Positions 6,355-63,848 of a stretch of DNA of 64,000 nucleotides are shown in pieces. The stretch is from Caulobacteraceae bacterium. GTDB taxonomy: Bacteria; Pseudomonadota; Alphaproteobacteria; Caulobacterales; Caulobacteraceae. The position numbers and the translations under genes are program-made. The stretch covers positions 111 to 64,110 of the forward strand of contig DASYGN010000082.1 in assembly GCA_035999625.1 (NCBI GenBank), read 5' to 3'. A model generated the notes under the pieces. It ran no database searches. It had not been told where the DNA came from and was given only the letters and a program-made list of their open reading frames with translations. Every line of letters starts with the position of its first letter. Position 1 is the stretch's first letter.

Positions 6355-6387
6355 ATGGCTTCCTCTGCCTCCCCTTCAGCCGCACAA

Positions 6388-6858: not shown

Positions 6859-6918
6859 GGTCCTTGCTGATTCTTGTGCGCGCCGGCGATGACGAGCGCC
6901 CGGCGCTGTTCGGCCGGC

Positions 6919-7917: not shown

Positions 7918-7951
7918 GGCGCCAGATATAGGGGGCTCGTTGTCGGCGCGC

Positions 7952-16999: not shown

Positions 17000-17083
17000 G
17001 GTTCGACTCCCCGTTGACCTAGGCGCGCTCTTCAACGGCGGCCTAAGGTTCGCGACCAATGCTGGGGCCGAACTTCCCCATGG

Positions 17084-19692: not shown

Positions 19693-19846
19693 CGCGTTCT
19701 CCGCTTTCCGATGCCGACCACCGTTTAGGACAAATTGGCCACAGAGCGAGGCCCGATTGGGGCTTTGCGCCAAGCGGCGCCTTGACGATCGCCGGCGCAG
19801 GCGCGAGATCAGCACATCAAGGCTAAATGCCCGGGGGAATACCATC

Positions 19847-42112: not shown

Positions 42113-42167
42113 GATCTCGCCTGTGGTGAGAGAAGGGTTTCGCGGTCTGGTGCGCGGCGCACGACCG

Positions 42168-42842: not shown

Positions 42843-43050
42843 CTTAATCCCTCCACCGAAGTCACCGCGGGAAATCGCCCGTGCGATGAACTGGAGGCCA
42901 GGGGACGGACGTTCGCATCCTGACCCCCATTCGGGGCCGGAACGCCGGCCGATCGCCTATCGTTCCGGTTGGCCGGCGCAGGAACCCGGGCCGGCCCCGG
43001 CGGTTATCGGAAAGCCCGGGCGGGCCGGAGCGCAGGATCGCGGCGGATCA

Positions 43051-45381: not shown

Positions 45382-46574
45382 CAGGCGGCCGCCAGGGCGT
45401 GGATCAGGTCCCGGCACGTGTCGGGGGTGGCGACGAACCATTCCTTCGGCGCCGAGGCGCAGCGCTGCTCGAGCGCCTGGTAGCGCGGCGCGTCGAGGTG
45501 GGCGAAGAAGCGGCGCAGTTCGGTGACCGGCTGGGCGACCACGACCCCAAGGCCGCGGCGCTGGAGCCAGCGGGCGGTCTCGCCGCCGGCCAGCGCGATG
45601 GGAACGACGCGCGACTGGCCACCTTCGTAGAGCCGATTGGGCAGCAGCCACTGCGAATTGCCGCCGGCCTGGAAGTGGTCCACCGCCCAGTTGAAATGCA
45701 CGCCGCCATAGAGGCGCGCCAGATCCTCCGGCCGGTAGGCGCCGATGAACCGCATTCCGGGGGCCGCCTCGACCTGGGCGGCGAAGTCGGGAAACTCGCG
45801 CTCCGAGGGCCGCCCCGCGAGCACCACCTCGATCCGCCCCTGGCTGGCGGCGGCGAGGCTGGCGAGTTCGGCGAAGCTTTGCCGGCAGCGCAGAATGCCG
45901 AACCAGCCGATGCGCCAGGGCGGTCCCGGGGGCCGCACCGCCCACCCGGCCGGCGGCGCGACGCATTCGAACACCCGATTCTCCAGGGTGACGACCGGCA
46001 GATCGAAGCGTGCGCCCAATCCCTGCCAGGGTCCGAAATAGGCCCTCACATAGGCCGGCGAGCTCACCACCAGGGCCTGGGTCTGGGCGAGCAGGCTGCG
46101 TTCGAGACGGCGCAGCAGCACACCGGCCGGGCCGGGCGATGTCATCAGCCGGTGGACGTCGAGACATTCGTAGACGAGGCGCGCCCGGGGGGCATGCAGG
46201 CGCCGGGCGAGGGCGGCGATGGTCAGCATCTCCAGATTACGCGCCAGGATGACATCGCAGCCGCGCAGATCGGCGCCCCAGCCGGCGGCGAGGAGGGCCT
46301 GGGCGCCGGTCGCCAACGCCCGCTGCAGCAGAGCGCCATCGTAGCTGCGGCCCAGATCCATCGCCGGCGCTCCGTCAACCTCGCCGATCGCCTGATCGGT
46401 GCGCCGGAAGCCGAACAGCCGCACCTCCGCGCCGGCCACGTGCAGCATCCTGACCCGGCGGACCACCCCCTGGTCCGAGAGGTCGTGGGCCAGATAGGCG
46501 ACGCGCGGCGCCGGCCCGCCGGGCGCCAGCGCCGGGTGGGAGAGGACCTCGGAGAGGGGTTGACCGCCGTCCAT
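45381..46574 (-). CDS. Putative GT-B fold glycosyltransferase (ExoL-like?)
   Basis: 397-aa ORF in operon position between two GT genes, with good coding appearance (RVAYLAHDLSDQGVVRRVRML...). I cannot point to a diagnostic motif, so the assignment rests on context and general resemblance only. Confidence 0.5.
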   Translation of the reverse strand: MDGGQPLSEVLSHPALAPGGPAPRVAYLAHDLSDQGVVRRVRMLHVAGAEVRLFGFRRTDQAIGEVDGAPAMDLGRSYDGALLQRALATGAQALLAAGWGADLRGCDVILARNLEMLTIAALARRLHAPRARLVYECLDVHRLMTSPGPAGVLLRRLERSLLAQTQALVVSSPAYVRAYFGPWQGLGARFDLPVVTLENRVFECVAPPAGWAVRPPGPPWRIGWFGILRCRQSFAELASLAAASQGRIEVVLAGRPSEREFPDFAAQVEAAPGMRFIGAYRPEDLARLYGGVHFNWAVDHFQAGGNSQWLLPNRLYEGGQSRVVPIALAGGETARWLQRRGLGVVVAQPVTELRRFFAHLDAPRYQALEQRCASAPKEWFVATPDTCRDLIHALAAA

Positions 46575-46580
46575 GTCGGC

Positions 46581-48845: not shown

Positions 48846-48998
48846 TCGGGTCACACCCCACGCCAGCACACGGCGCTCATTGGTAGCTCTGCCAAAGTTC
48901 GTCAGACGCGCTCCGGTTCCCGGTCAGCAACTGGCGAAGGCGCCGGGCGTTCGATTAGCCGGGCGCGGGTGGTCGCGCGGTTCGCGTCGGTTGGCGGC

Positions 48999-50072
48999 AT
49001 GCTGGTCAATGTCCAGGCCCTGAGAGCGGTGGCCGCCTTTCTGGTGGTGTTCGTGCACCTCCAGGCGCTGGCCCTGCTGCTCGGCTGGGGTCCGAACGCC
49101 TTTGTTTTCGGCAATTCCGGCGTCGATCTGTTCTTCGTCATCAGCGGCGCGATCATGGTTGTCACCGTGCGCCGCCGGCCGCAGGGCCCGCAGACCTTCC
49201 TCGCCAACCGCATCGCCCGCATCGCGCCGCTCTACTGGCTGATCACCGCGGTGGTGTTCTGCGCCGCGCAAGTCGCCCCCTCGCTGTTCGACGCCACCCA
49301 TCCCGACGGCGTGGCGCTGGCCAAGTCGCTGTTCTTCATCCCCTTCCAGCGGGCCGACGGGCGCATGGCCCCGGTGGTCTTCGTCGGCTGGACGCTCAAC
49401 TATGAGATGGCCTTCTATCTGCTGTTCGCCGCCGGCTTGGCGTTCCGGCGCTGGCAGGCTGGCGTGGCCGTGGTCCTTGGCCTGCTGCTGAGCGCGGTCA
49501 TCGCCGGCCTGCTGGCCCATCCGGCGGGCGGCCTGGCTCGTTTCTACACGGCCCCCCTGGTGCTGGAATTCGGCCTGGGGATGATCATCGGCGGGGCGAT
49601 CGGGCGCCTGAACGCCGTCCGCGCGCCCACAGCCCTCGTCCTTGTCGTCGACGCCGTGATGGCCGGCGCGATTCTGACCGGCCCGGTGCTGTGGCCACAG
49701 GCGGACCGTTTTGTCGCCTTCGGACTGCCCAGCGCCATCCTGGTGCTGTCGGCCATCCACCTTGAGGAGACAGGACGCGTTGTCCGCTCGCCGTGGGCGC
49801 GGCGGTTGGGCGATGCCAGCTATTCGACCTACCTCTCGCATTTTTTCGTCACCCAGGCGGTGATCAAGACCGCCGTGGTCCTCGGCCTCGCGGCGCCGCT
49901 GGCCATCGGCCTGCTGATTCCGGTGATCTTCGTGCTGGTGGCCGCCGCCGGGCTCGCCACCTACGCGATGGCCGAACGGCCGCTGATCGGCTGGAGCAAG
50001 CGGCTGCTGCGTCGCGCCGGTGGCGCGGCTCCAGTTGTGACCGCTTCGGTTGCGGTCAAGGTGGAACCTTAA
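48999..50072 (+). CDS. Acyltransferase family 3 membrane protein (ExoZ/ExoH-like O-acyltransferase)
   Basis: LRAVAAFLVVFVHL...GNSGVDLFFVISGAIM is the acyltransferase_3 signature, with about 10 TM helices. It is the 3' part of a 1568-aa shadow ORF. The ATG at 48999 is chosen. Confidence 0.85.
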   Translation: MLVNVQALRAVAAFLVVFVHLQALALLLGWGPNAFVFGNSGVDLFFVISGAIMVVTVRRRPQGPQTFLANRIARIAPLYWLITAVVFCAAQVAPSLFDATHPDGVALAKSLFFIPFQRADGRMAPVVFVGWTLNYEMAFYLLFAAGLAFRRWQAGVAVVLGLLLSAVIAGLLAHPAGGLARFYTAPLVLEFGLGMIIGGAIGRLNAVRAPTALVLVVDAVMAGAILTGPVLWPQADRFVAFGLPSAILVLSAIHLEETGRVVRSPWARRLGDASYSTYLSHFFVTQAVIKTAVVLGLAAPLAIGLLIPVIFVLVAAAGLATYAMAERPLIGWSKRLLRRAGGAAPVVTASVAVKVEP

Positions 50073-50132
50073 GGATAGGGCGGACATTGACGCCGAAGGT
50101 TAGCTGTTCAATCCACCGGGATCCCTCGATAG

Positions 50133-50813
50133 ATGTTGAACTTCGCCCTTGTCGATGGTTCCGCGCATGGCTCAGCTTTGCGCACCAGGCAAAAGAGCTA
50201 TCAACAGGACCAGGTCGTATCGACCTTCAATTTTGTATTGTCGTTGACGATCCTGTTGCTATTGATCCCGTTACTGGTGATCGTGGCGACCGCCATCTAT
50301 CTACAAGACGGCGGTCCGGTTCTGTTCAGTCAGGAGCGAGTCGGTCGCCGAGGCCGAACCTTCCGCTGCCTGAAATTCCGTACCATGACGGTCAACGCGG
50401 AGTCGCGGCTGGAGCGCCTGTTGGCCACCGACCCGCGCGCCCGCGCCGAGTGGGCGAAGGACCAGAAGTTGCGCCAGGATCCCCGCATCACCCGCCTGGG
50501 CGCGATCCTGCGCAAGTCAAGCCTCGACGAGCTGCCGCAGCTGGTCAACGTGCTGCGCGGCGAGATGAGCCTGGTCGGCCCACGCCCCATCGTTCAGGCG
50601 GAGGTCTGCCGCTACGGCCGGCGCATCGCCTACTATCAGGCGGTCAAGCCCGGGATCACCGGTCTGTGGCAGGTGAGCGGCCGCAACGACATCGATTATC
50701 GCCGCCGGGTGGCCATGGATTGCCTCTATGTGCGCAAGAAGAGCCTGGCCTATGACGGCTGGTTGCTGGTGCGCACAATTCCCGCCGTGCTCATTCGCCG
50801 CGGCTGCTATTAG
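50133..50813 (+). CDS. Undecaprenyl-phosphate hexose-1-phosphate transferase (bacterial sugar transferase, ExoY-like)
   Basis: One N-terminal TM, then PVLFSQERVGRRGRTFRCLKFRTM...DELPQLVNVLRGEMSLVGPRP, the canonical Bac_transf motifs. Confidence 0.9.
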   Translation: MLNFALVDGSAHGSALRTRQKSYQQDQVVSTFNFVLSLTILLLLIPLLVIVATAIYLQDGGPVLFSQERVGRRGRTFRCLKFRTMTVNAESRLERLLATDPRARAEWAKDQKLRQDPRITRLGAILRKSSLDELPQLVNVLRGEMSLVGPRPIVQAEVCRYGRRIAYYQAVKPGITGLWQVSGRNDIDYRRRVAMDCLYVRKKSLAYDGWLLVRTIPAVLIRRGCY

Positions 50814-50939: not shown

Positions 50940-51068
50940 ATGTCCGACAAAGAGCGCTCCGAGCAGCCAGGCAAGATCTGGTTCAACTGGCCGTTGGTTC
51001 TTGGGCTAGTGATTAACTTCGCCATCCTGGCGGCCATCGCCTACTGGCTCCTCCACCGCGCCGCCTAG
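50940..51068 (+). CDS. Candidate 42-aa single-pass membrane peptide (below the ORF-track cutoff)
   Basis: The ATG at 50940 gives MSDKERSEQPGKIWFNWPLVLGLVINFAILAAIAYWLLHRAA, with TAG at 51066-51068: a polar head plus one clean TM helix. It overlaps the 3' end of the convergent ORF 51006-51746 by 63 nt, so only one of the two tails may be real. Confidence 0.3.
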   Translation: MSDKERSEQPGKIWFNWPLVLGLVINFAILAAIAYWLLHRAA

Positions 51069-51746
51069 ACGCTCGTAAGGGAATCCGTAAGCGGGGGTCA
51101 GCCGATCCCGGTGGTCAGGCCGCCGGTGATGGCGCCGCTGCGCGACCGCATGATGATGGTGGTGGCGATGATGGGCGGCGGCGACAGGGCGTCGGGCATG
51201 GGCCGTGGCGCGAACGCGCGGACGATGAAGGCGATGGTGGCCGACCGCCGGGTGGCGAACCCTGGGGCGCATCGGGGCCAGGGCCGGGGGCGCCGGGCTC
51301 AGGCTGGGCGCAGCGAGATGCTCCGGCGCGGGCGGTTGCGCGACGATCGCCGGGGGCCGGGCCGCGTGAACCGCCGGCAGCCGGCCAAGGCCCAGCCCGG
51401 CGGCGGCGACGCCGATCGCGCCGGCGGCGAGCACCAGCGCCAGGCTCCAGGCGGACAGGCGGCCCGAACCGGGGCTTGGTTCTTGCGCCGCCGTTGACCA
51501 GGGCGAGGCGGGCGGCGCCGGCGCGCCGATCTCGACGGGCGCGGCGCTTGGATTTCGCCGCGCCGGCCGCTCCGCCGGAACCGGCTCGAGGGCCATCAGC
51601 TGATCGCAGGTGGCGCAATAGCGGCGCCAGGCCGGGTTGGCCCCGCCGCACCGCGGACAAGGGATGGTGGCCCGGCTGACCTCGAACGCGTCCTCGCTCG
51701 GCGCCGGCGAAAGCGTGGCTGAAAGACTGTTTGCCTGGTCAACCAT
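51006..51746 (-). CDS. Zinc-ribbon membrane protein with Pro/Ala-rich and His-rich extracytoplasmic tail
   Basis: From the ATG at 51746: MVDQANS...CPRCGGANPAWRRYCATCDQ (CxxC-x10-CxxC zinc ribbon), a Pro-rich spacer, TM LSAWSLALVLAAGAIGVAAAGLGLG, then a Pro/Ala-rich region and HHRHHHHH. The low-complexity tail lowers confidence. Confidence 0.45.
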   Translation of the reverse strand: MVDQANSLSATLSPAPSEDAFEVSRATIPCPRCGGANPAWRRYCATCDQLMALEPVPAERPARRNPSAAPVEIGAPAPPASPWSTAAQEPSPGSGRLSAWSLALVLAAGAIGVAAAGLGLGRLPAVHAARPPAIVAQPPAPEHLAAPSLSPAPPALAPMRPRVRHPAVGHHRLHRPRVRATAHARRPVAAAHHRHHHHHAVAQRRHHRRPDHRDRLTPAYGFPYERLGGAVEEPVGDGRQDGEVNH

Positions 51747-51929
51747 TCTCGCCGCTCGCGGGGCTGTTTCGGCTCGCCGCTTGTTAACGCCAGCGCCAAC
51801 CCCCTGTTCCGGCGCACCCCGCCAAGCCCCGCTAAGCCCCGCTCCGGACGGCGGAACGAACTGGCGCCCGGTCACGTTGCAGAGAGGCGTCGAGAGCCGT
51901 TGATCGGGGAAGCCAGGGTGAGGGGAAAA

Positions 51930-52136
51930 ATGAGTTCTGCCATCATGGTGAGCCGGGTCGAGCACGGTTGGACCTGGGCGGTGATCAATGACGCCGGCGA
52001 GACGACCGCCTGCGGCGCCGCCCACGACCAAGCCTTCGCCATGGCCGCCGCGCGGCGGATATCTCGCCTCGCCGAAGCCGGCCCCGGCAATGACCACACC
52101 GCCCTCGGCCACGCCGGCGAACGGCATGGACGCTGA
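51930..52136 (+). CDS. Small hypothetical protein (68 aa) at the head of the NRPS operon
   Basis: The ATG at 51930 is preceded by GAGGGGAAAAA (a strong SD). The translation MSSAIMVSRVEHGWTWAVINDAGETTACGAAHDQAFAMAAARRI looks like a folded small domain. It ends 33 nt before the next gene. Confidence 0.4.
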   Translation: MSSAIMVSRVEHGWTWAVINDAGETTACGAAHDQAFAMAAARRISRLAEAGPGNDHTALGHAGERHGR

Positions 52137-52169
52137 AACCACACCAGACCGCCTTCGGGAGTTGGGACA

Positions 52170-53420
52170 TTGATCGGATTAGCGATTATCGGCGCGGGCC
52201 CCTACGGCCTTTCCCTCGCCGCGCACCTGCGCGCCGCCGGGGTGTCGTTCCGGATCTACGGCCGGGCGATGGAGTCGTGGGAAGCCTTCATGCCGCCCGG
52301 CATGCAACTGAAGTCGCATCCATGGTCGTCGAACCTGTCGGCTCCCGGCGAGGGCTACACCCTGCAGGACTATTGCCGCGAGCAGGGTGTCGCCTATGAC
52401 CACGCGCTGCTGATGGTTTCCCGTGAACTGTTCATCGGCTACGGGCGGGCGTTTCAGCAACGGTACGCCGCCGACCTGGCGGACAAGACCCTGCAGCGTC
52501 TGGAGCCGGTCGCGGGCGGCTTCCGCCTGACCTTCGCCGACGGCGATGTCAGCGAGGCGCGACGAGTGGTCGTGGCCACCGGCATCCGTCCGTTCGCCTA
52601 CACGCCGCCGGTGCTGGCGGCCCTGCCCGAGGGCCGCGTGAGCCATAGCGCCGACTACGGCCCGCTGGACGCCATGGTCGGGCGCCGCGTGGCGGTGGTC
52701 GGCGGCGGGGCTTCGGCGATCGATCTGACGGTCCTGCTGCGCGAGGCCGGAGCCGAACCGACCCTGGTGGCGCGCACCAAGGCGCTGGCTTTCCTGCCAC
52801 CCGCCTCGCCTTTGCCGCGCTCGGCGCTCAAGGCGGCGCTGAAACCCAATTCGGGGCTGGGAACGGGCTGGTATCTGTGGCTGTGCGCCAACGCCCCGCA
52901 GGTAATGCACGCCTTGCCGGGGCCGCTCCGCCGGCATCTGGTTCGCCACACCCTGGGACCGCTGGCCGGACCCGGCTTGCGGGAACGCCTGGCCGGTACG
53001 CCGACCTACCTCGGGCGCGATCTCGCGGCTGTCGAATCTGGTAAAGACCGTATACGGATCAGTTTTGCCGGAACTTCGGCGCCGCCGCCCATCGAAGTCG
53101 AGCACGTTATCGCCGCCACCGGCTATCGGACCGATCTCGGCCGGCTCGATTTCCTGCCGCCGAAGCTGCGGGTCGACATTCGCACCGCCGGTGGCGCGCC
53201 GCTGCTGAACGCCGCCTACGAGAGTTCGGTCCCCGGGCTACATTTCATCGGCGCCGCGGCGGCGCCCAGCCATGGCCCGGTGGCCCGGTTCGTCTATGGC
53301 GTCGAGCACGCCGCCCAGACCCTGACGCGGCGCTTCGCGCACCAGCGGCGGAACCGGCCATCGAGCGCCCCGGCGCCGATCGCCGCTCCGGCCGCGGGTC
53401 TGCAAAGCCGCGCCCGCTGA
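52170..53420 (+). CDS. FAD/NAD(P)-binding flavoprotein monooxygenase-like oxidoreductase
   Basis: IIGAGPYGLS (first GxGxxG, at the very N-terminus, fixing the TTG start at 52170), RVAVVGGGASAIDL (second dinucleotide fold), and VIAATGYRTD (ATG motif of class B/N-hydroxylating flavin monooxygenases). Confidence 0.7.
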   Translation: MIGLAIIGAGPYGLSLAAHLRAAGVSFRIYGRAMESWEAFMPPGMQLKSHPWSSNLSAPGEGYTLQDYCREQGVAYDHALLMVSRELFIGYGRAFQQRYAADLADKTLQRLEPVAGGFRLTFADGDVSEARRVVVATGIRPFAYTPPVLAALPEGRVSHSADYGPLDAMVGRRVAVVGGGASAIDLTVLLREAGAEPTLVARTKALAFLPPASPLPRSALKAALKPNSGLGTGWYLWLCANAPQVMHALPGPLRRHLVRHTLGPLAGPGLRERLAGTPTYLGRDLAAVESGKDRIRISFAGTSAPPPIEVEHVIAATGYRTDLGRLDFLPPKLRVDIRTAGGAPLLNAAYESSVPGLHFIGAAAAPSHGPVARFVYGVEHAAQTLTRRFAHQRRNRPSSAPAPIAAPAAGLQSRAR

Positions 53421-53439
53421 GGCGGCCCGCGGTGGCGCG

Positions 53440-54621
53440 ATGAACGTCCTGCTCCTGGCCACGCTGTTCAAGCTCCCCTACCGGGTGCTGCGCTGCGCCG
53501 CGGCGATGCCGGCCGAGGTTTGTGTCCTCGGCGGTCCGGGCGCGCGCGGCCTGGAGTCATCCACCTTCTGCCGGCGGTTCGTCCCGGCCGCGGCGGCGAT
53601 CGACGGCCAGCCGAGCGAGGCGCTGGCGGCGGAGATCGACGCGGTGGCGCAGCGGCTCGGTATCGATGCGGTGATCGCCGCCGACGCCCCGGCGACCCGC
53701 AGCCTGATCGCTTCGCGGCCTTGGCTGCAGACGCGCTGCTTTCCAATGCCCGACCTGGCCAGCTTCGATCTGCTGAACGACAAATGGCGCTTCGGCGGCC
53801 TTTGCCAGGAGCTGGGGCTGGCGCGCCCCGCGACCACCCTGTGCGACAGCCTCGCCGACCTCGAGGCCAAGCTGGCCGACTGGCCGGAGAGCCGCGCGCT
53901 GCTGGCCAAGCCCCTCGACTGGGATGGCGGGCGTGGTCATGTCCGCCTTCAGGGCCCGCGGCGGCGGCGGGCGGCGGCGCGCATCGACTACCAGCCGATC
54001 CTGGTGCAGGAATTCATAAACGGCGCCGACCTCAGCGCCAGCATCCATTGCCGCGAGGGGGCGATCCGCGCCTGCGTCACCCAGGCCTACACGCGTGGGC
54101 TCTACACCGCCTACCATGATGCAGGCATCCATCGGCAACTGACCCGCATCGCCGCCAGCCTGCGCCTCGAAGGCATGTTCAACTTCGATCTGCGCACCGA
54201 CGCGAGCGGCCGCGTCTACTTCCTGGAATGCAATCCCAGGGTATTCTTCAGCATGAAGATGGCGGCCCTGGCGGGGATCAACTTCCTGCGCCTGGGATTG
54301 GCGGAGGCTGAAGCAGGCGAGCCGCTGGTGGCCCCCCAGAGTCCCGTCCGGATCCATTTTCCCAGGGCCTTCGCCAGCGCCCTTCGGAGCCCCCACAGCT
54401 TTCGTGAGACCGCCTGGCCGACCCTGAAGTTCCTGCTCGCCGACCCGACCCCCTACGTTCGCGAAAAGCTTGGCCTGGAGCGCGAACATCCGCCGCGCAC
54501 GGGCCAGGCGAGCGGTCGCCAGCGGCCATCTTTGGCGCACATCGAGGGGGCCCGCCGGGAGAGGAACATTAGCGGCATGGAAGCGTTGCAAATTCGGCGC
54601 ACTGGCGGAGCCGGGGCCTGA
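53440..54621 (+). CDS. ATP-grasp family ligase
   Basis: LLAKPLDWDGGRGHVRL, ILVQEFINGADLSASIHC and FNFDLRTDASGRVYFLECNPRVF (E-x-N Mg/ATP site) follow the ATP-grasp order. Confidence 0.75.
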   Translation: MNVLLLATLFKLPYRVLRCAAAMPAEVCVLGGPGARGLESSTFCRRFVPAAAAIDGQPSEALAAEIDAVAQRLGIDAVIAADAPATRSLIASRPWLQTRCFPMPDLASFDLLNDKWRFGGLCQELGLARPATTLCDSLADLEAKLADWPESRALLAKPLDWDGGRGHVRLQGPRRRRAAARIDYQPILVQEFINGADLSASIHCREGAIRACVTQAYTRGLYTAYHDAGIHRQLTRIAASLRLEGMFNFDLRTDASGRVYFLECNPRVFFSMKMAALAGINFLRLGLAEAEAGEPLVAPQSPVRIHFPRAFASALRSPHSFRETAWPTLKFLLADPTPYVREKLGLEREHPPRTGQASGRQRPSLAHIEGARRERNISGMEALQIRRTGGAGA

Positions 54622-54644
54622 ATGTTCGGGAGGTAGGGGCCTAG

Positions 54645-56471
<1,827 letters not shown>

Positions 56472-56473
56472 CC

Positions 56474-57712
56474 ATGACCGCCGAATCCAGCGCCATCGCC
56501 ACTCGCGAGCGGGAGCCGTCGCTCTATCAGCTGCTCGACCCGGCGGTGCTGGCCGATCCCTATCCGCTCTACCGACGGCTGCGCGAGCGCGACCCGGTCG
56601 CCTGGGATCCGTTCCTGCATGCCTGGGTGGTGACCAGCTACGCCGGGGTAGTCGAAGTTCTGCACCGGTTCTCGGCCGATCGCACCCCGAGCCCGGACCA
56701 GCTGGCGGCCATGGGCATGGGCGCGCTGGAGCCGGTCGCCGCGTTGATGGTCCGCCAGATGCTGTTCATGGACGCCCCCGCCCATACGCGCCTGCGCGGC
56801 CTGTGCTCCAGCGCCTTCACCTCGCGGCGGGTCGACCATCTGCGGCCGCACATCCAGGACATCGCCGACGACCTCATCGACCGGGCCGCGAGCAAGGGGC
56901 GATTGGACGTCGTCGCCGACTTCGCCAACCCGCTGCCGGCGATCGTCACCGCCGAGCTGCTCGGCGTCCCGACCGCCGATCATGCGCAGCTCAAGAGCTG
57001 GTCAGCCGACTTCGCCGGCATGCTCGGCAACTTCCAGCACAATCCCGACCACGTCGCCCTGGCGGCGCGCAGCGTCGCCGAGATGGCAGCCTACTTCCGC
57101 TCGGCGATCCGTGAACAGGCGCGCACGGGGGACGCCGGGCTGATCGGGCTGCTCGTCGGCGCCAGCGAAGCGGGAACCAGCCTCTCCGAGGACGAGGTCA
57201 TCGCCAATGTCATCGTCACCATGGTCGGCGGCCAGGAGACGACCACCAATCTGATCGGCAACGGCCTGCTGAGCCTGATCCGCAATCCGCGCGCCCTGGC
57301 TCAGCTGCGCGACGATCCGGCGATCATCGAACCGGCGGTCGAGGAGCTGCTGCGCTACGAGAGCCCGAGCCAGCACACCGCCAGGCTGGCCCCGGCCGAC
57401 ATGGTGCTGGGCGGCAAGCCGATCCGGCGCAAGGATGCGGTGATGGCGGTGATGGCCGCCGCCAATCGCGACCCGTCGCGGTTCGAGGATCCCGACCGGC
57501 TCGACCTGACCCGCCCGAACAATCGCCATCTGGCGTTCGGCTGGGCGGCCCATTTCTGCTTCGGCGCGCCTCTGGCCCGCATCGAGGGTCAGGTGGCGTT
57601 CGCGACCCTCCTGGCCCGGCTGCCCAATCCACGCCTTGGCCAGGAGCCGCTGGTGTGGCGGCAGAATCTCGGCCTGCGCGGTCTCACCGCCCTGCCGGTC
57701 GAGTTTGGCTGA
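56474..57712 (+). CDS. Cytochrome P450
   Basis: I-helix MVGGQETTTN, ExxR ELLRYESP, and heme-thiolate loop FGWAAHFCFGAPLA. It starts 2 nt after the A-T stop. Confidence 0.9.
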   Translation: MTAESSAIATREREPSLYQLLDPAVLADPYPLYRRLRERDPVAWDPFLHAWVVTSYAGVVEVLHRFSADRTPSPDQLAAMGMGALEPVAALMVRQMLFMDAPAHTRLRGLCSSAFTSRRVDHLRPHIQDIADDLIDRAASKGRLDVVADFANPLPAIVTAELLGVPTADHAQLKSWSADFAGMLGNFQHNPDHVALAARSVAEMAAYFRSAIREQARTGDAGLIGLLVGASEAGTSLSEDEVIANVIVTMVGGQETTTNLIGNGLLSLIRNPRALAQLRDDPAIIEPAVEELLRYESPSQHTARLAPADMVLGGKPIRRKDAVMAVMAAANRDPSRFEDPDRLDLTRPNNRHLAFGWAAHFCFGAPLARIEGQVAFATLLARLPNPRLGQEPLVWRQNLGLRGLTALPVEFG

Positions 57713-60700
57713 TGGACGCCGCCAGCGCCCTCTCCGCCGAGCGCCGCCAGCTGCTCGAAGGTCTGCTGTCGGGCGCGGGCGGGCCGATCGCCGGTCAGGC
57801 CATCCCGCGGCGCGCGGAGGGGGCCGCCATTCCCCTTTCCGCCGAGCAGCGCGACGTCTGGTTCCACTGCGCTATGGCCGATGGCGTGAGCCCCTATAAC
57901 GAAGCCATCACCGTCCATCGCCGCGGTCCTCTCGACATCGCCGCCCTGCAGAGGGCGATGGACGAGATCCTCAGACGCCACGAGATCTGGCGCAGCGCGA
58001 TCACGCTCATCGACGGCCAGCCGCATATGCTGGTCAGGCCCGAGGTCAGCCTGCGGATCGCCTACCTCGATCTGGCCCACCTGCCGGCCGAGGAGCGCGA
58101 GCGGCGGGCGCTGGACCTGGCCGCCGAGGATGCGCGCGCGCCGTTCAAGCTCGACGAGGCGCCGTTGCTGCGCGCGCGCCTGGTGCGCATGGGCCCGGAT
58201 GTCCATCGGCTGCTGATCACCCTGCACCACATCATCTTCGATGGCGTGTCGATCTATCGCCTGTTCATGCCCGAGCTGGCGAAGCTTTATGCCGTCTACG
58301 CCGACGGCGGGACGCCGCCGCCACCCGGGCCACGGCTTCAGTACGGCGACTACGCGCTATGGCGCGAACGGCAGCTGGAGACCGCGCCCTTCACCCGCGA
58401 GCTGGCCTACTGGCGCGAGACCCTGGGCGAGGAGCCGCCGGAGCTGAACCTTCCCGCCGACCGCAGTCCGCCGGCGACGCCGAGCTACCGCGGGTCGATG
58501 GAATGCTTCACCCTTTCGCGCCAGACCACCGATCAGCTCAAGGCGCTCAGCCGCCAGGAGGGCGTCACCCTCTATGCGACCTTGCTGGCCGCCTTCAAGG
58601 CCATGCTGCATCGCTACAGCGGACAGGAAGACATGGTCATCGGCGGGGTGACCGACATGCGCCGCCGACCCGAACTCCAGCCGGTGATGGGCTACTTTCT
58701 CAACAGCCTGGCGCTGCGCACCCGGCCGAAACCGGACCTGCCGTTCACCGACTATTTGCAACAGGTGCAGGCGAGCGTGATCGGCGCCCTCGACGCCAGC
58801 AATCTGCCCTTCGATCGGGTGGTGCGCGCCTTGCGTCCGCGCCGGACCGGCGGGCGCCATCCTCTGTTCCAGGTGCTGTTTTCCGTCGAGCCCCCGGCCC
58901 CGCGCTTCGCCGACGGCTGGGACCTGACCCAGATGGACGTCGTCGTCGGAGCGGCTAAGTTCGACCTCTATCTCGAACTCGACGAGTACGAGGGGCGCCT
59001 GATCGGGCGCTTTCTCTACAGCACCGATCTGTTCGAGGCGGCCAGCATCCGGCGCATGATCGGCCACTGGCAAACCTTGCTGGCGGCCATCGTCAACGAC
59101 CCGCACGCCTTGCTGGGCGATCTGCCGCTGCTGAGCGGCGCCGAGCGCGCCGAGGTGCTTATCGGCCGCAACCAGACCCAGCGCGCGGCTTCCCCGGAGA
59201 CGCTGCCAACGCTGATCGAAGCCCAGGCCAAGGCGCGGCCGGAAGCCATCGCCGTCATCGCCGATGGCCGCGCCTGGCGGTATCGCGAATTGATGGCGCG
59301 GGCGGATGTCCTGGCGGCCAGACTTCACCAGGCGGGCCTCGGCGATGGGGCTCTGGCGGCCATCGCCATGGAGCGGTCGTTCGACCTCATCGCCGCCCTG
59401 CTGGCGATCCTGAGGCTCGGGGCCGCCTATCTGCCGATCGACACCGCCCTGCCGCGCGCGCGCATCGCCCAATTGCTGGACGACGCCGCGCCCGCCCTGG
59501 TGCTGACCGACACCGCTTCCCTGGGCGCTCTGCCCAGGACCGCAGCCAGGACGGTCATCGCCGATGGCGCGAATGACCAGGCGATCCCGGCGCCTTCGCC
59601 CACGGCCGGGGGGCCGCAGTCACTCGCTTATGTGCTCTACACCTCCGGTTCCACCGGCCGGCCCAAGGCGGTCGAGGTTGCCTGCCGGGCGGTGGTCAAT
59701 CTGCTGGCGGCGGTGGGCGAGTCGATCGGCTTCGGCCCCGACGATGGCCTCTTGGCGGTGACCACCCTCTCCTTCGACATCGCCGCCCTGGAGCTGTTTC
59801 TGCCGCTGGTCGCCGGCGGGCGGCTCATCCTGGCCTCTCGCGACGAAGCTGGCGATCCGGGCCGCCTGGTGCGCCGCATTCACGACAGCGGATGCACCGT
59901 CATCCAGGCCACGCCGGCGACCTTCCGCGGCCTCCTGGCCAACGGCTGGGCCGGCGATTCGCGGCTCAAGATCCTGTGTGGCGGCGAAGCCTTGCCGGCC
60001 GCGCTGGCCGCCGAGCTGCTGAGCCGCGGCGCCGGCCTGTGGAACATGTACGGCCCCACCGAGACCACGATCTGGTCGCTCATCCACAAGGTGCGGCCCG
60101 GTGATGATCCGGTCCCCATCGGCCGGCCGCTGGCCAATACCCAGGTGTTCATCGTCGATCGCCACGACGCGCTGGTCCCCGATCTGGTTCCCGGCCAGCT
60201 GTTGATCGGCGGCGATGGCGTGGCGCTCGGCTACCGCGGGGATCCGGCGCTGACCGCGGCGAAGTTCGTCAGACTTCCGCACCTCGCGCCGGGAAGGCTC
60301 TATCGCACCGGCGACCTCGCCCGCTGGCGCGCCGACGGGACCGTCGAGTTTCTCGGCCGGCTCGACAATCAGGCCAAGATCCGCGGCTATCGGGTCGGCG
60401 TCGAGGAGGTCGAAGCCGCTCTCGCCCAGCACCCGAGGATCGCCGCCTGCGCGGTGCGCGCCGCCCCGGACGCGTCCGGCGAAGCCAGCCTGACCGCCTA
60501 TCTCGTCGGGCCAGGCCTTTCGGAAACCGAGATTCCGGGCATCAGGGCCCGGCTGCGCGAAGTCCTGCCAGCGTACATGGCGCCCAGCCGCTATCACGTG
60601 CTGCCGAGCCTGCCGCTGACCGCCAACGGGAAGATCGACCGACGGCGCCTGCCAGGGCCGACGGCGCCGGCCAGCGCCGGCGCCGCCAGTCCGCCTCGTG

Positions 60701-61797
60701 ATGATCTCGAGCGCCTGCTGGCCGACCTGTTCCAGGAGTGCCTGGGTGTGGGCGAGATCGGCCGGGACGACGACTTCTTCGAGCTTGGCGGCCATTCGCT
60801 GCTCGCCTGCATTCTCATGGCCAAGATCCAAGGCGCCCTGGGGCGCGAGCTGCCCCTGGTGACCTTCTTCCGCGCGCCGACCATCGCCACCCTGGCCGAG
60901 CATCTGCGGGCCCCCAGCGTGCCGCGTTTCGCCCATCTGGTGCCGCTGCGCACCGCCGGCCAGGGCCGGCCGCTGTTTATCGTCCACGGCATCTTCGGCA
61001 ACGTGCTGCAGCTGCGCGATCTGGCCGAGCTGCTCGAGGCGCCGCGACCGGTCTACGCCCTGCAGGCGCGTGGCGCCGATCCGCGCGAAGCCCCCCACAC
61101 CCGCATCGAAGAGATGGCTGAGGCCTATCTGGCGGCGATCCGGGAGGTCCAGGACAGCGGCCCCTACGCGCTCGCCGGCTACTCGTTTGGCGGCCTCATC
61201 GCCTATGAGATGGGCGTCCGCCTGCGGGCGGCCGGGGAAGCGGTCGATCTCCTGGCCATGCTGGAGACCGATCTCCACGACAGCCTGCTGCCGCTGTCGG
61301 GGCGTCTCGCCCACCACGCCTCGTGGCCGGCGCGGGTCGCCCGGCGCCTCATCCGGCTGCCGCCGAAAATGCTGGGACCCTACGTGCTCGGCAAGCTCCG
61401 CCGGCTCGGCGCCGGTTCGGTCCTTCCCGATGATTTCGCCGAGATCGGCGGTCTCTCGCCGCAGATGCTCGAGCGCTACCGGCGGATGTACGCCATCGGC
61501 GTCGACGAATTCCGGCGCTTCCGCCCCGGCGCCTTCGATGGTCGCTTGAGCGTCTTCCGCAGCCGTGGACCCCGGTTCGACGCCTGCGATCCGATGCCGA
61601 TCTGGCGCCGCGCCGCCGCCGCCGTCGATCTGTTCGAGATCGAAGGGCGCCACGAGCGGATCATGGAGCGGCCGTTCGTGGAAACCCTGGCGGCGCAGTT
61701 GAGCCGCTGCATCGCCAAGGCCGATGGCCAGGCCCCGAGAAAGGAGACGAGGACGATGGGGGAAGGGGGTCTGGCGGCTCTCCGCGCGTGGGCGTGA
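57712..61797 (+). CDS. NRPS module C-A-T-TE
   Basis: C domain HHIIFDGVS. A domain LAYVLYTSGSTGRPKAV, SFDIAALE, NMYGPTETT, YRTGDLARW, GRLDNQAKIRGYRV and TANGKIDR. T domain FFELGGHSLLACIL. TE GYSFGG with a later GRHERIM. The ATG overlaps the P450 stop by 1 nt. Confidence 0.9.
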   Translation: MDAASALSAERRQLLEGLLSGAGGPIAGQAIPRRAEGAAIPLSAEQRDVWFHCAMADGVSPYNEAITVHRRGPLDIAALQRAMDEILRRHEIWRSAITLIDGQPHMLVRPEVSLRIAYLDLAHLPAEERERRALDLAAEDARAPFKLDEAPLLRARLVRMGPDVHRLLITLHHIIFDGVSIYRLFMPELAKLYAVYADGGTPPPPGPRLQYGDYALWRERQLETAPFTRELAYWRETLGEEPPELNLPADRSPPATPSYRGSMECFTLSRQTTDQLKALSRQEGVTLYATLLAAFKAMLHRYSGQEDMVIGGVTDMRRRPELQPVMGYFLNSLALRTRPKPDLPFTDYLQQVQASVIGALDASNLPFDRVVRALRPRRTGGRHPLFQVLFSVEPPAPRFADGWDLTQMDVVVGAAKFDLYLELDEYEGRLIGRFLYSTDLFEAASIRRMIGHWQTLLAAIVNDPHALLGDLPLLSGAERAEVLIGRNQTQRAASPETLPTLIEAQAKARPEAIAVIADGRAWRYRELMARADVLAARLHQAGLGDGALAAIAMERSFDLIAALLAILRLGAAYLPIDTALPRARIAQLLDDAAPALVLTDTASLGALPRTAARTVIADGANDQAIPAPSPTAGGPQSLAYVLYTSGSTGRPKAVEVACRAVVNLLAAVGESIGFGPDDGLLAVTTLSFDIAALELFLPLVAGGRLILASRDEAGDPGRLVRRIHDSGCTVIQATPATFRGLLANGWAGDSRLKILCGGEALPAALAAELLSRGAGLWNMYGPTETTIWSLIHKVRPGDDPVPIGRPLANTQVFIVDRHDALVPDLVPGQLLIGGDGVALGYRGDPALTAAKFVRLPHLAPGRLYRTGDLARWRADGTVEFLGRLDNQAKIRGYRVGVEEVEAALAQHPRIAACAVRAAPDASGEASLTAYLVGPGLSETEIPGIRARLREVLPAYMAPSRYHVLPSLPLTANGKIDRRRLPGPTAPASAGAASPPRDDLERLLADLFQECLGVGEIGRDDDFFELGGHSLLACILMAKIQGALGRELPLVTFFRAPTIATLAEHLRAPSVPRFAHLVPLRTAGQGRPLFIVHGIFGNVLQLRDLAELLEAPRPVYALQARGADPREAPHTRIEEMAEAYLAAIREVQDSGPYALAGYSFGGLIAYEMGVRLRAAGEAVDLLAMLETDLHDSLLPLSGRLAHHASWPARVARRLIRLPPKMLGPYVLGKLRRLGAGSVLPDDFAEIGGLSPQMLERYRRMYAIGVDEFRRFRPGAFDGRLSVFRSRGPRFDACDPMPIWRRAAAAVDLFEIEGRHERIMERPFVETLAAQLSRCIAKADGQAPRKETRTMGEGGLAALRAWA

Positions 61798-62438
61798 CGG
61801 CGTCAATCCCGGGGTTGGCGGCGCATTGGGCGCCGCTCAGCGTCAGCGCCGCGAGGCAAGCCGAGCTGGCCGCCTGGCTCGCGCCGGCCGAGGCTGATCG
61901 CGCCGCTCGCTATCGCCAGGCGCGCGATCGCCGGCGCTTCATCGTCCGTCGCGGGCGGTTGCGTCAGCTGTGCGCCGATCGCCTGGGGTGCGCTCCGAGC
62001 CAGGTTCCGCTCGCCGAGGGACCGTTCGGCAAGCCGTTCGTCGAGGGCGCGAGCCTGCGCCTCAATCTGTCTTCTTCAGGCGATCTGGCGCTGGTGGTGC
62101 TGGCCGAGGATCTCGACGTCGGCTGCGACATCGAATGGCGGCGGCCCGATCTCGCCAGCCGCCGGACCGCGGAAAGGCTGTTTTCGCCCAGCGAGAAAGC
62201 CCAGCTGCGGGCGATCGACACCGAGGCGGCGTTCACCCGCGCCTTCTTCGCTTGCTGGACCCGCAAGGAGGCCTTGATCAAAGGCGTCGGGCTGGGTCTC
62301 TCCCTGCCGCTCGAGGACTTCGATGTATCGGTGGCGCCGGACTGTCCCGCGCCGTTGCTGAGCGGACCGCCGGGGTGGTCGCTGCGCGCCTTCGAGCCGG
62401 CGCCGGCGCTGCACGTCGCCATCGCCTTCCGCGCCTGA
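61788..62438 (+). CDS. Sfp-type 4'-phosphopantetheinyl transferase
   Basis: FGKPFV, VGCDIEW and FFACWTRKEALIKGVGLG (W/F-x-x-KEA-x-x-K) motifs. The GTG start (61788 or 61794) overlaps the NRPS stop. Confidence 0.85.
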   Translation: MGVTASIPGLAAHWAPLSVSAARQAELAAWLAPAEADRAARYRQARDRRRFIVRRGRLRQLCADRLGCAPSQVPLAEGPFGKPFVEGASLRLNLSSSGDLALVVLAEDLDVGCDIEWRRPDLASRRTAERLFSPSEKAQLRAIDTEAAFTRAFFACWTRKEALIKGVGLGLSLPLEDFDVSVAPDCPAPLLSGPPGWSLRAFEPAPALHVAIAFRA

Positions 62439-62478: not shown

Positions 62479-63072
62479 ATGGAGGCGCTGCATCTGCAGG
62501 CCTGGGTCATTCCGGCCTTTCTCGGTCTTGGCCTGGCGGCGGCCAGCGGCCTTCGTACCTTCCTGCCGATCACCCTGCTGGCGCTGGCCGCGCGCTTCGG
62601 CCTGTTCGGCGCGACCCTCAACCCCCACGCCGCCTGGCTGACCTCGACCCCGTTCCTCATTGGCCTGGTGGTGGCTACGATCGCCGAGCTGGCGGCCGAC
62701 AAAATCCCGATCGTCGATCATTTCCTTGGTCTGGTTGGAACCATCACCCGCCCCGCCGCCGGGGCTCTGGCCGCCGGGGCGGTGTTCGCCCACCTCGACC
62801 CGGGCACGGCGGCGCTGGCCGGCCTGGTCATCGGCGTGCCGACGGCGCTCGCCTTCCACGCGGTGCAGTCGGGGGCCCGGGTGGTCAGCACCACGACCAC
62901 CGCCGGAATCGCCAATCCCTACCTGTCCCTGATCGAGGATCTGCTCTCGGGCCTGATGGCGGTGGCGGCGATCGCCGCACCGGTCCTGGCCGCGGTGGCG
63001 GTCGCCGGCCTGCTGTGGCTGCTGATCGCCGTGCGTCGCCGGCGGCGCATGCGCCGGCCGGCGGCCGGTTAG
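62479..63072 (+). CDS. DUF4126-like integral membrane protein
   Basis: 197 aa with about 5-6 TM helices. The N-terminal GLGLAAASGLRTFLPITLLALAARFGLF and central DKIPIVDHFLG resemble DUF4126 proteins, as far as I recall them. Confidence 0.55.
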   Translation: MEALHLQAWVIPAFLGLGLAAASGLRTFLPITLLALAARFGLFGATLNPHAAWLTSTPFLIGLVVATIAELAADKIPIVDHFLGLVGTITRPAAGALAAGAVFAHLDPGTAALAGLVIGVPTALAFHAVQSGARVVSTTTTAGIANPYLSLIEDLLSGLMAVAAIAAPVLAAVAVAGLLWLLIAVRRRRRMRRPAAG

Positions 63073-63848
63073 CGCAGCCGGAGCCAGCGGCGGCCGCGGT
63101 AGGAATCGGCGATAACCCAGGCGGCGGCGGTGAGGGTCCAGGAGATCACCGTTTCGCTCCACGCGAAGGCGCTCGGGTGGCCGGCGGCGGCGATCGGCGC
63201 CCACACCAGAAACGTGAACCCGGCGATCTGTAGCGTGGCCAGGCTGGCGGCCAGCCTGGCCAGGACGCCGGCGATGATCGCCACGCCGGCGGCGATGTAG
63301 GCGCCGCCGGTGAAGTAGGCCCACCCGGGATGGCCAGGCAGCCAGGCCGGAACCAGGCTCGCGGTCTCCTTGAGGTAGGCGAAATGGGCCGCACCGAAGG
63401 CGATCAGGGACGCGCCGAAGAGGGTGCGGGCGATGCGCAGGCCAGGCTCGCCGGCGGCGAAGCCAAGGTGGCGGCGATCCCAGGCATTGGCGGTCCCGGC
63501 GTAGAGCGTCCAGGCGCCGGCGAGAACGACCACGGTCTCGGCGCAATTTTCCCAGGTATCCATCGACCCGGGCGCCAGGACGATGACCCGGACCCTGAAC
63601 ACCAGCACCCAGAGCAGCAGCCAGGCCAGAAGAACCCGCGCCGCCAGGGCGGCCGAGCCCCGCCAGAGGAGACCGGCGCCGGCTCCAAGGCAGACGAGGG
63701 CGCACATCCACACCAGCGCCGCGCGCCCCGGCCACGCCTTGGGAACCGGCGCCCACAGGCCGGTGAGGTCGGCGCTGACCAGCCCCATGATCCCAAGGGC
63801 GATCAACGTCGCCGCGAACACCCAATGGGCCAGCCTGGCTTTGCGCAT
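63069..63848 (-). CDS. Integral membrane protein (DoxX-like)
   Basis: 259 aa with several TM helices. WVFAATLIALGIMGL and FGAAHFAYLKETASLVP are reminiscent of DoxX-family proteins. The assignment is tentative. Confidence 0.45.
   Translation of the reverse strand: MRKARLAHWVFAATLIALGIMGLVSADLTGLWAPVPKAWPGRAALVWMCALVCLGAGAGLLWRGSAALAARVLLAWLLLWVLVFRVRVIVLAPGSMDTWENCAETVVVLAGAWTLYAGTANAWDRRHLGFAAGEPGLRIARTLFGASLIAFGAAHFAYLKETASLVPAWLPGHPGWAYFTGGAYIAAGVAIIAGVLARLAASLATLQIAGFTFLVWAPIAAAGHPSAFAWSETVISWTLTAAAWVIADSYRGRRWLRLR

Follow-up and report, generated by a model that had tools for sequence, protein, structure and literature searches.

Here we characterized, by computational analysis, a seven-gene operon at positions 51930-62438 on the plus strand of a 64,000-nt stretch of DNA (hereafter the window) from a Caulobacteraceae bacterium (contig DASYGN010000082.1). 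The operon encodes a small protein, a flavoprotein, an ATP-grasp enzyme, a stand-alone adenylation-thiolation (A-T) protein, a cytochrome P450, a condensation-adenylation-thiolation-thioesterase (C-A-T-TE) protein and a 4'-phosphopantetheinyl transferase (PPTase), and it lies directly downstream of a complete-looking Wzx/Wzy exopolysaccharide (EPS) locus at 35331-50813. A reading made from the sequence alone had described a compact, self-contained NRPS (non-ribosomal peptide synthetase) operon. Our comparisons show instead that the operon is a composite of two separately evolved modules, namely the flavoprotein and ATP-grasp genes (module A) and the A-T/P450/C-A-T-TE/PPTase cassette (module B), both of which occur separately, and that it stands beside an EPS locus which that reading overlooked. 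We consider it a composite rather than a single unit because module B is widely found without the first genes of the operon, and module A mostly without any NRPS. The locus is unusual in that a tightly conserved, widespread cassette without an assigned product and an undescribed, sometimes fused enzyme pair are joined beside an EPS locus.

Layout of the operon and its enzymes

The sequence-only reading counted six, possibly seven, packed plus-strand genes beginning at 51930. Seven co-directional genes were found, with gaps of 33, 19, 23, 2, -1 and -4 nt at their likeliest starts (Table 1). The C-A-T-TE gene most likely begins with ATG at 57712, overlapping the P450 stop (TGATG), and the PPTase gene with GTG at 61794, overlapping the NRPS stop (GTGA). 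Both starts agree with the lengths of these genes in the closest relative, contig L007 from a farmland metagenome. This contig carries the same seven genes in the same order, including the small open reading frame (ORF), at 88-95% amino acid identity to the window, and a second contig with ~72% identity (L008) keeps the order from the small ORF through the flavoprotein, ATP-grasp and A-T genes and breaks off inside the P450 gene. Such recurrence of the gene order is far beyond chance. The G+C content of the window is ~70% throughout, and third-position G+C (GC3) of 0.82-0.88 in the operon frames indicates that they are coding. The start at 51930 is borne out by the 68-aa ORF that opens the operon, which is conserved in the same two relatives, at 81% identity across the full alignment (93% for residues 1-56) and at 73%, respectively. 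At its N-terminus ~50 residues scarcely vary between the window, L007 and L008, and its tail is variable. The ORF is confined to the window clade, and no family model matched it at threshold, the best being a sub-threshold match of the L008 copy to DUF2188 (E = 0.059); we take it to be a real gene. A promoter and terminator scan of 50.7-63.3 kb gave results at or below shuffle expectation, and an Rfam scan of the whole window returned no matches. Downstream, the DUF4126 gene was located as the earlier reading had described, but the gap is 40 rather than 41 nt and the gene is absent from L007, where the PPTase gene directly precedes a DoxX-like minus-strand gene. Since it is missing from so close a relative, we place DUF4126 outside the system.

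The domain inventory given in the earlier reading was confirmed in full by Pfam, and motif inspection showed all catalytic motifs of the operon enzymes to be intact, including the carrier serine and C-domain histidine whose loss had been named as grounds for abandoning that reading. Both adenylation (A) domains match Pfam AMP-binding and AMP-binding_C, exceed the TIGR01733 cut-off (358 and 392 bits vs. 317) and carry the SGSTGQPKG, YRTGD and GK(L/I)D motifs together with the A10 lysine. In both thiolation (T) domains, LGGHSL with the phosphopantetheine-accepting Ser is accompanied by a Pfam PP-binding match; the condensation (C) domain has HHIIFDG, of the HHxxxDG type, and the thioesterase (TE) has GYSFGG with the catalytic Ser and a downstream EGRHE His context (Pfam Thioesterase, 90 bits). 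The P450 shows the haem-ligand loop FGWAAHFCFG, the I-helix motif GGQETT and ELLR, and the PPTase shows GCD and WTRKEALIK. With A, T, C and TE domains and their core motifs present, the operon can be classed by sequence as an NRPS operon and is predicted to make a peptide product; module B follows standard NRPS logic. The Leu and Gly specificities implied in the earlier reading were recovered as DAWFLGNVVK in the A-T protein, the classical Leu code, and DILQLGMIWK in the C-A-T-TE protein, a Gly code. Both codes were read in the GrsA register, with positions 299/301 taken by hand from the LCGGE motif; automatic extraction of these two positions is unreliable for the second A domain.

Comparison with solved structures placed the C domain closest to the elongation C domains of Txo1/2 and TycC (222-242 bits), and a starter (lipo-initiation) C domain was ruled out, CDA-C1 scoring 51 bits against 242 for elongation domains. 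Among the best-scoring stretches listed for the TE, only matches to the Pks13 thioesterase (~44 bits) span the whole domain, and higher-scoring NRPS and fatty-acid-synthase matches are confined to its first ~110 residues. The Pks13 thioesterase transfers its product to a sugar, trehalose, and we regard the likeness as a lead, not as evidence. The 60 best solved matches of the P450 are BioI, which acts on acyl-ACP, together with PksS, CYP164A2, PikC, EryF and similar enzymes, and its best NCBIfam match is the cyclodipeptide-synthase-associated TIGR04538, at 189 bits vs. a cut-off of 500. As the earlier reading had stated, the operon contains no MbtH-like, regulator or exporter gene, and an MbtH-like motif is absent from every frame of the window.

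The flavoprotein of module A has two dinucleotide motifs of the GxGxxG type, GAGPYG and GGGASA, along with GRVSHSADY (GxxxHSxxY), resembling that of flavin-containing monooxygenases (FMOs), and ATGY. Pfam Lys_Orn_oxgnase (PF13434) matches its N-terminal half only, at 42.6 bits vs. a cut-off of 21.3. In Foldseek searches its AlphaFold model (mean pLDDT 88.3) gave the highest TM scores, 0.70-0.73, to the amine N-hydroxylases SidA, PvdA, DesB, DfoA and KtzI and to a putrescine hydroxylase, and it also matched small bacterial FMOs and bacillithiol disulfide reductase. On Pfam, motifs and fold, the earlier label of a flavin monooxygenase-like enzyme is a fair one, and N-hydroxylation is plausible from the model. 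The ATP-grasp enzyme matched only ATPgrasp_Ter (48 bits) and ATP-grasp_3 at E ≤ 0.001. Residues K157, E263, N265 and R267 are invariant, and an E-C-N-P-R metal/ATP site is present. Its model (mean pLDDT 84.7) is closest to the L-amino-acid ligases BL00235 (3vot), RizA (4wd3) and YwfE (3wo1) and to PylC (4ffl), with TM scores of ~0.55 and with biotin carboxylase and PurK-type enzymes close behind; by sequence, solved structures gave chance-level matches only, and an exact-sequence look-up returned no record. The modelled fold points to a carboxylate-amine (or carboxylate-nucleophile) ligase, whose substrates cannot be read from the fold.

Table 1. Genes of the operon and of its surroundings in the window
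Feature	Position	Strand	Pfam match or remark
68-aa ORF, first operon gene	51930-52136	+	Conserved in two relatives, without family assignment
Class-B flavoprotein monooxygenase-like, N-hydroxylase fold, TTG start after GGGAG	52170-53420	+	Pyr_redox_3, Pyr_redox_2, Lys_Orn_oxgnase
Predicted ATP-grasp carboxylate-amine ligase, small family	53440-54621	+	ATPgrasp_Ter
Stand-alone A-T didomain, predicted Leu-activating	54645-56471	+	AMP-binding, AMP-binding_C, PP-binding
Cytochrome P450, CYP107-like	56474-57712	+	p450
C-A(Gly)-T-TE termination module	57712-61797 (alternative start 57655)	+	Condensation, AMP-binding, PP-binding, Thioesterase
Sfp/HetI-type PPTase	61794-62438 (alternative start 61788)	+	ACPS, AASDHPPT_N
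DUF4126 membrane protein, downstream of operon	62479-63072	+	Pfam match
DoxX-like membrane protein	63069-63848	-	Adjoins PPTase side of operon; conserved in L007
GH16 endo-beta-1,3-1,4-glycanase with RTX-type secretion repeats	35331-37553	+	
Flippase	37518-39047	-	
Second GH16 endo-beta-1,3-1,4-glycanase	39048-39896	-	
Chain-length determinant / tyrosine kinase	39893-42337	-	
Wza-type exporter	42168-42842	-	
Wzy-like protein	42730-44355	+	
GT4-like gene	45381-46574	-	
GT2-GT4 fusion	46581-48869	-	
Acyl_transf_3 O-acyltransferase	48990-50072	+	86 bits
ExoY/WbaP-C-terminal-type priming transferase, 226 aa	50133-50813	+	
Zinc-ribbon membrane protein, 246 aa	51006-51746	-	Separates EPS locus from operon

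Distribution and genomic context of the two modules

The ATP-grasp family is small, with 68 matches in a word-indexed search and 128 representative clusters at E ≤ 1e-30 among 1.84 billion in a full search; the flavoprotein family on its own is far larger (>5000 matches). A scan covering one genome per species recovered 32 ATP-grasp loci, almost all in Alphaproteobacteria. The flavoprotein gene lies directly upstream in 23 of them, and none has a dimodular NRPS, a P450 or a PPTase. Cultured carriers of module A include Acidiphilium rubrum ATCC 35905 (L024) and Bradyrhizobium sp. STM 3562 (L011). Two proteins encoded on lower-GC metagenome contigs, P0318 (791 aa; locus L126, 734-3109) and P0067, are single-polypeptide fusions of the two enzymes. 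In P0318, residues 4-408 correspond to the flavoprotein (42% identity) and 438-785 to the ATP-grasp enzyme (39% identity), and Pfam finds Pyr_redox/Lys_Orn_oxgnase and ATPgrasp_Ter in the same protein. We regard these fusions as good evidence for cooperation of the two enzymes.

Module B is widespread as a soil cassette. Hundreds of homologues of the A-T protein, with 50-63% identity, occur in soil metagenomes and in metagenome-assembled genomes of Caulobacteraceae, Stellaceae, Rhizomicrobium and Methylomirabilota, and one named species record, Vineibacter terrae (P0227), is among them. Three loci (L043, L044 and L045) have the same four genes in the same order (A-T, P450, NRPS, PPTase) without a window-type ATP-grasp, which is likewise absent from all 83 cassette loci. 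A scan of metagenome contigs keyed on two peptide patterns from cassette P450s confirmed at least 534 relatives, the best 80 of which have 64-81% identity. Every related locus with flanking sequence has the A-T gene directly upstream of the P450 and the NRPS downstream, often with the PPTase next. Among the cassette proteins the P450 is conserved best, at 73-81% identity in L043-L045 vs. 52-63% for A-T and 55-60% for C-A-T-TE, and its family is broad, since clustering at 85% identity divides the 85 P450s (83 related loci plus the window and L007) into 52 groups. A plasmid collection contained no P450 above 45% identity to that of the window. Of the 94 A-T homologues with readable motifs, 87 retain the Leu code; the nearer clade retains the Gly-type code (DILQ..xIWK), and in loci further removed the second module differs or the NRPS is larger. 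The A-T/P450 pair, which thus also feeds larger or different NRPSs with other second-module codes, behaves as a portable "oxidised leucine" supply unit. At one locus (L087, 15405-16787) the NRPS gene is followed by a flavin-dependent halogenase-like/GG-reductase-family gene (CmlS model 166 bits, far below cut-off), a hint that tailoring of the product differs in other lineages.

Several loci show that the flavoprotein, whether alone or together with the ATP-grasp enzyme, has joined thiotemplate enzymes more than once. In a Stellaceae locus (L044) the cassette is convergent with a three-gene unit of a flavoprotein of the window family (39% identity), a distant ATP-grasp and a GT2, and in L102 the NRPS gene is closely followed by one for a 43%-identical flavoprotein. 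The pair adjoins an adenylating enzyme and a T-TE protein inside an EPS locus in Acidiphilium and in one more Acetobacteraceae genome (L016, 8602-13729; L019, L024 and L029, ~8650-13700), with all four genes co-directional in L016. The adenylating enzyme is of the fatty-acyl/aryl-CoA-ligase type, without the amino-acid-binding Asp, and the T-TE protein has up to 36% identity to the T-TE end of the window NRPS.

Both modules also recur in or beside polysaccharide loci, a pattern that the sequence-only reading had likewise missed. In two Caulobacteraceae contigs (L001 and L010), a polysaccharide operon on one strand consists of GT4, GT2, acyltransferase, flavoprotein, ATP-grasp and GT2-GT4 genes, the last two overlapping by 4 nt. 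The GT4, GT2-GT4 and priming-transferase genes of the window are 55-63% identical to those flanking the pair in these contigs, and the simplest history has the NRPS cassette arriving directly behind the ATP-grasp gene of an EPS locus in the lineage of the window. In L003, L005 and the Acidiphilium loci the pair lies among GT4, Wzx, Wzy, GH5 and Bac_transf genes. Overall, within 10 kb, two or more polysaccharide genes can be recognised in 13 of the 32 module A genome loci and one or more in 18. Flavoprotein homologues with 45-48% identity occur in Mesorhizobium and Bradyrhizobium inside EPS loci with GH16, GT2 and GT4 genes and no ATP-grasp. Around module B in metagenome loci, the commonest flanking families are polysaccharide deacetylase (6), Bac_transf (5, of which 4 with CoA_binding_3), Hydrolase_4 (4), pyridoxal phosphate (PLP)-dependent decarboxylase (3) and GT4 (3). 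In three loci (L086, L100 and L119) the gene directly upstream of the cassette, on the same strand, encodes an EPS priming glycosylphosphotransferase (408-430 bits vs. the TIGR03025 cut-off of 295), with Wza-like genes further upstream in all three and a chain-length determinant in L086. A priming transferase lies within two genes of the cassette far more often than expected of a random pair of genes. One or more polysaccharide genes were found in ~14 of the 83 cassette loci, many contigs being short, which limits what could show; the positive loci are spread over several 85% clusters, although several loci are neighbours in the tree, and the co-occurrence counts are uncorrected for relatedness.

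The EPS locus of the window is likely to be the functional context of the operon. It resembles rhizobial succinoglycan-type loci. A plus-strand ORF of 1568 aa at 45366-50072 was rejected as a high-GC artefact overlying the real minus-strand GT4-like and GT2-GT4 genes; only its last ~1.1 kb, the Acyl_transf_3 gene, is real. A tRNA-Ala(GGC) called by ARAGORN at 47520-47610 on the minus strand is likely a false positive, being 91 nt long, inside the GT2-GT4 gene and without an Rfam tRNA match at the gathering score. A minus-strand ORF at 51006-52142 (378 aa) was trimmed to 51006-51746. In the trimmed gene product, a CPRCG...CATC zinc ribbon at the N-terminus is followed by an Ala/Pro-rich region that contains a probable membrane segment and by a His/Arg-rich C-terminus; the protein shows 50% conservation in L007, has no family match and could be a regulator or anti-sigma-like factor. 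Two TonB-dependent receptor genes and a gene for a 666-aa TPR-repeat protein with a C-terminal sulfotransferase domain (14519-17059, minus; 19343-22318 and 22358-24358, plus) sit 30-37 kb upstream of the operon.

Proposed pathway and competing explanations

What the sequences show, as described above, is the set of genes with their intact motifs and specificity codes, their modular make-up and their genomic associations; the P450 reaction, the order of the steps, the substrates of the ligase and the fate of the product we infer as follows. The Sfp-type PPTase of the operon would prime both carriers, and the A-T protein would load L-Leu onto its own carrier, where the adjacent P450 would oxidise the bound residue. 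Beta-hydroxylation is the precedent for this step. P450 oxidation of amino acids tethered to peptidyl carrier proteins is an established mechanism, with NikQ and the proposed PlyR reaction as examples (PMC3943440). Given the invariant adjacency of A-T and P450 and the NikQ-type precedent (PMC3943440), we think it probable that Leu is loaded and oxidised in the tethered form. Very probably, the elongation-type C domain then joins oxidised Leu to Gly on the second module, giving (oxidised Leu)-Gly-S-T, and the TE releases the dipeptide, which it might do by hydrolysis, by cyclisation or by transfer. The flavoprotein and ATP-grasp enzyme would act on this same product, the ligase adding one further amide bond via an acyl-phosphate and the flavoprotein inserting an N- or heteroatom oxygen. 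That the two modules share a product is, on balance, likely, in view of the operon packing, the conservation down to 72% identity and the repeated co-location of the modules.

The partner in the last ligation could be a component of the EPS pathway, for instance an acidic or amino sugar of the repeat unit. An EPS component is plausible in this role because both modules recur at polysaccharide loci and an orthologous EPS locus lies upstream, and an ATP-grasp enzyme that amidates the glucuronate carboxylate of the Campylobacter capsule has been demonstrated experimentally (PMC11800379). If the ATP-grasp enzyme and flavoprotein do act on the NRPS product, a final acceptor belonging to the EPS pathway is a possibility that we hold tentatively; a free amino acid, which would give a free tripeptide, is about equally possible. 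Taken as a whole, we lean cautiously towards a functional seven-gene operon in which oxidised Leu-Gly from the NRPS is processed by the ligase and the flavoprotein, with a partner plausibly drawn from the EPS pathway.

Several observations weigh against this scheme. Neither module has a characterised relative. The 60 best solved matches of the P450 lack the known carrier-dependent beta-hydroxylases NikQ, OxyD and P450sky, and the operon has neither an exporter nor a ferredoxin partner. The minus-strand gene at 51006-51746 stands between the operon and the EPS genes. The EPS association holds for a minority of loci in both modules (13/32 and ~14/83), its counts are partly clustered phylogenetically, and module B occurs in many loci without nearby polysaccharide genes, L043 and L045 being examples. 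In four Stellaceae loci (L020, L023, L026 and L037; ~6200-13900 in each) module A has another conserved setting, among MetE-like (Meth_synt_2), phosphonate-binding-like, dCTP-deaminase-like and MFS transporter genes, without polysaccharide genes. Moreover, the ATP-grasp enzyme of the window is not of the TupA type, unlike the Campylobacter jejuni amidoligase Cj1438.

The product may instead be a free, diffusible metabolite unrelated to the polysaccharide locus, namely oxidised Leu-Gly with a residue added by the ATP-grasp enzyme and with N-oxygenation, and the tailored di- or tripeptide proposed in the sequence-only reading is in this sense still live. The operon has its own PPTase and a releasing TE, its ATP-grasp enzyme is structurally nearest to L-amino-acid ligases that make free dipeptides, many cassette loci are free of polysaccharide genes, and the ExbB/ExbD genes that precede the cassette in L043 would suit a secreted, re-imported compound. 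Yet a secreted metabolite sits poorly with an operon devoid of an exporter, with a flavoprotein family and enzyme pair that are typically embedded in polysaccharide operons (down to the 4-nt overlap of ATP-grasp and glycosyltransferase genes in L001), and with a cassette that repeatedly follows an EPS priming transferase on the same strand. We consider a free metabolite with no tie to the polysaccharide a real, if tentative, possibility; a free tailored tripeptide and its polysaccharide-linked version appear about as likely as each other.

The main alternative to both the free tripeptide and the EPS-linked product is that the modules act independently as two neighbouring pathways, the pair modifying EPS or making its substituent and the cassette making an oxidised Leu-Gly of its own. 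Each module is complete and common without the other (none of the 83 cassette loci has a window-type ATP-grasp, and none of the 32 ATP-grasp loci a dimodular NRPS), and L001 and L010 have GT2-GT4 exactly where the window has the NRPS, which suggests an insertion. Independence is harder to reconcile with gaps of 19-23 nt and no terminator-like site between the modules, with an arrangement kept down to ~72% identity, with the related flavoproteins found independently beside the cassette in L044 and L102, and with the pair beside an adenylating enzyme and T-TE protein in Acetobacteraceae. We regard two unrelated pathways as rather unlikely.

A more specific version of the EPS link holds that the NRPS supplies a peptidyl substituent for the neighbouring EPS rather than an antibiotic-like free metabolite. 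Oxidised Leu-Gly would be placed on a sugar of the lipid-linked repeat unit, either by the ATP-grasp ligase, which would amidate a sugar carboxylate or amino group, or by the TE acting as a transferase, and in either case the flavoprotein would oxygenate the unit further. We know of no earlier thiotemplate (NRPS) pathway dedicated to bacterial EPS decoration, and in this specific form we consider the link unlikely.

It is improbable that the TE cyclises Leu-Gly to a diketopiperazine whose ring is oxidised by the P450, with the flavoprotein perhaps adding N-oxygenation to give a metal binder. Such a route would have an analogy in the oxidation of cyclo(Leu-Leu) during pulcherriminic acid synthesis; release of cyclic dipeptides is established for dimodular NRPSs that end in a TE, TIGR04538 is the best NCBIfam match of the P450, and the flavoprotein fold is N-hydroxylase-like. 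The TIGR04538 score is, however, far below cut-off, a P450 invariably paired with a stand-alone A-T protein better fits action on a tethered amino acid, and the cassette persists where the downstream NRPS changes in specificity and size. A siderophore, suggested by the N-hydroxylase fold and by ExbB/ExbD near the L043 cassette, was set low, because the flavoprotein family is found in polysaccharide, not siderophore, loci. A cluster that is a non-functional relic is highly improbable, given intact core motifs, uninterrupted frames, high GC3 and strong amino acid conservation across relatives; nothing was found in its support, and its sole caveat is the metagenome-assembled source.

Relation to known systems and significance

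In line with the sequence-only reading, which did not recognise the gene order, no characterised match was found. None of the seven proteins matches an NCBIfam equivalog at cut-off, with AusA, MxcG, SolG, EntF, TxtE and HetI far below, and we found no description of either module in the literature. No product is assigned by any of the family models, solved structures and papers that were searched; the orphan status of the operon is provisional. The nearest parallel to the A-T/P450 pair is offered by NikP1/NikQ, NovH/NovI and PlyR (the last proposed to yield 3-hydroxyleucine), where, as in the window with its gap of 2 nt, a free-standing A-T protein beside a P450 feeds a downstream C domain. 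The Leu predicted as substrate of the window A-T protein is a further point of likeness. The CYP107-like P450, by contrast, does not group by sequence with NikQ, OxyD and P450sky, having a very tight family of its own. By analogy, the operon may work like the carrier-dependent P450 systems without belonging to them by sequence. Small dimodular NRPSs that yield dipeptide derivatives, with aureusimine AusA/AusB as an example, resemble the operon in their pair of modules, in having an Sfp-type PPTase of their own and in a product the size of a dipeptide. The partial NCBIfam matches of the operon score only 541 against the AusA cut-off of 2500 and 26 against the AusB cut-off of 225, and the operon differs in being split into A-T and C-A-T-TE proteins, in release by a TE rather than a reductase and in the inserted P450.

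Similar comparisons can be made for module A. The ATP-grasp enzyme shares its fold and Mg/ATP residues with the L-amino-acid ligases YwfE/BacD, RizA and BL00235 and with PylC, but its identity to them is 12-19% and it belongs to a different Pfam family; ligation of two free amino acids is, on the model, a candidate function. In Campylobacter jejuni, the C-terminal amidoligase of Cj1438 is an ATP-grasp domain in a polysaccharide locus that is physically coupled to a GT2 and amidates a sugar carboxylate (PMC11800379). Relatives of the window ATP-grasp gene likewise overlap a GT2-GT4 gene, whereas the gene that follows the ligase in the window encodes an NRPS, not a glycosyltransferase. The flavoprotein has the three-domain class-B fold and two GxGxxG motifs of SidA, PvdA, DesB, DfoA and KtzI; it differs in its low identity to them (16-18%), in its FMO-like GxxxHSxxY motif and in its context, its relatives lying in polysaccharide loci or beside ATP-grasp genes rather than among siderophore genes. 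Finally, genes for an adenylating enzyme, a carrier and an alpha/beta-hydrolase occur at surface-polymer loci, as here, in Dlt D-alanylation, in the exosortase A system-associated acyl-CoA ligase set and with Pks13, all of which function in the decoration of cell-surface polymers. The A domains of the window give sub-threshold matches to TIGR03098, but the operon reaches no membership threshold for systems of this kind and lacks an MBOAT or DltB-like partner.

Orphan NRPSs are common in metagenome-assembled genomes; the wide distribution of this cassette and a possible role in polysaccharide decoration raise its interest. A cassette that is common in soil metagenomes, and for which no product, structure or named family was found, marks a gap in the chemistry of soil bacteria, and the flavoprotein/ATP-grasp pair forms a unit in polysaccharide operons of Alphaproteobacteria of which we found no description. 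The presence of both units in a single operon beside an EPS locus offers a testable route to the function of each. Should the link to the polysaccharide be false, the locus would be another orphan NRPS cluster, broadly distributed. If it is true, it would reveal a new way to decorate cell-surface glycans, and a peptidyl substituent made by the NRPS would, to our knowledge, represent the first NRPS pathway for bacterial EPS decoration and give a role to a common soil-metagenome cassette.

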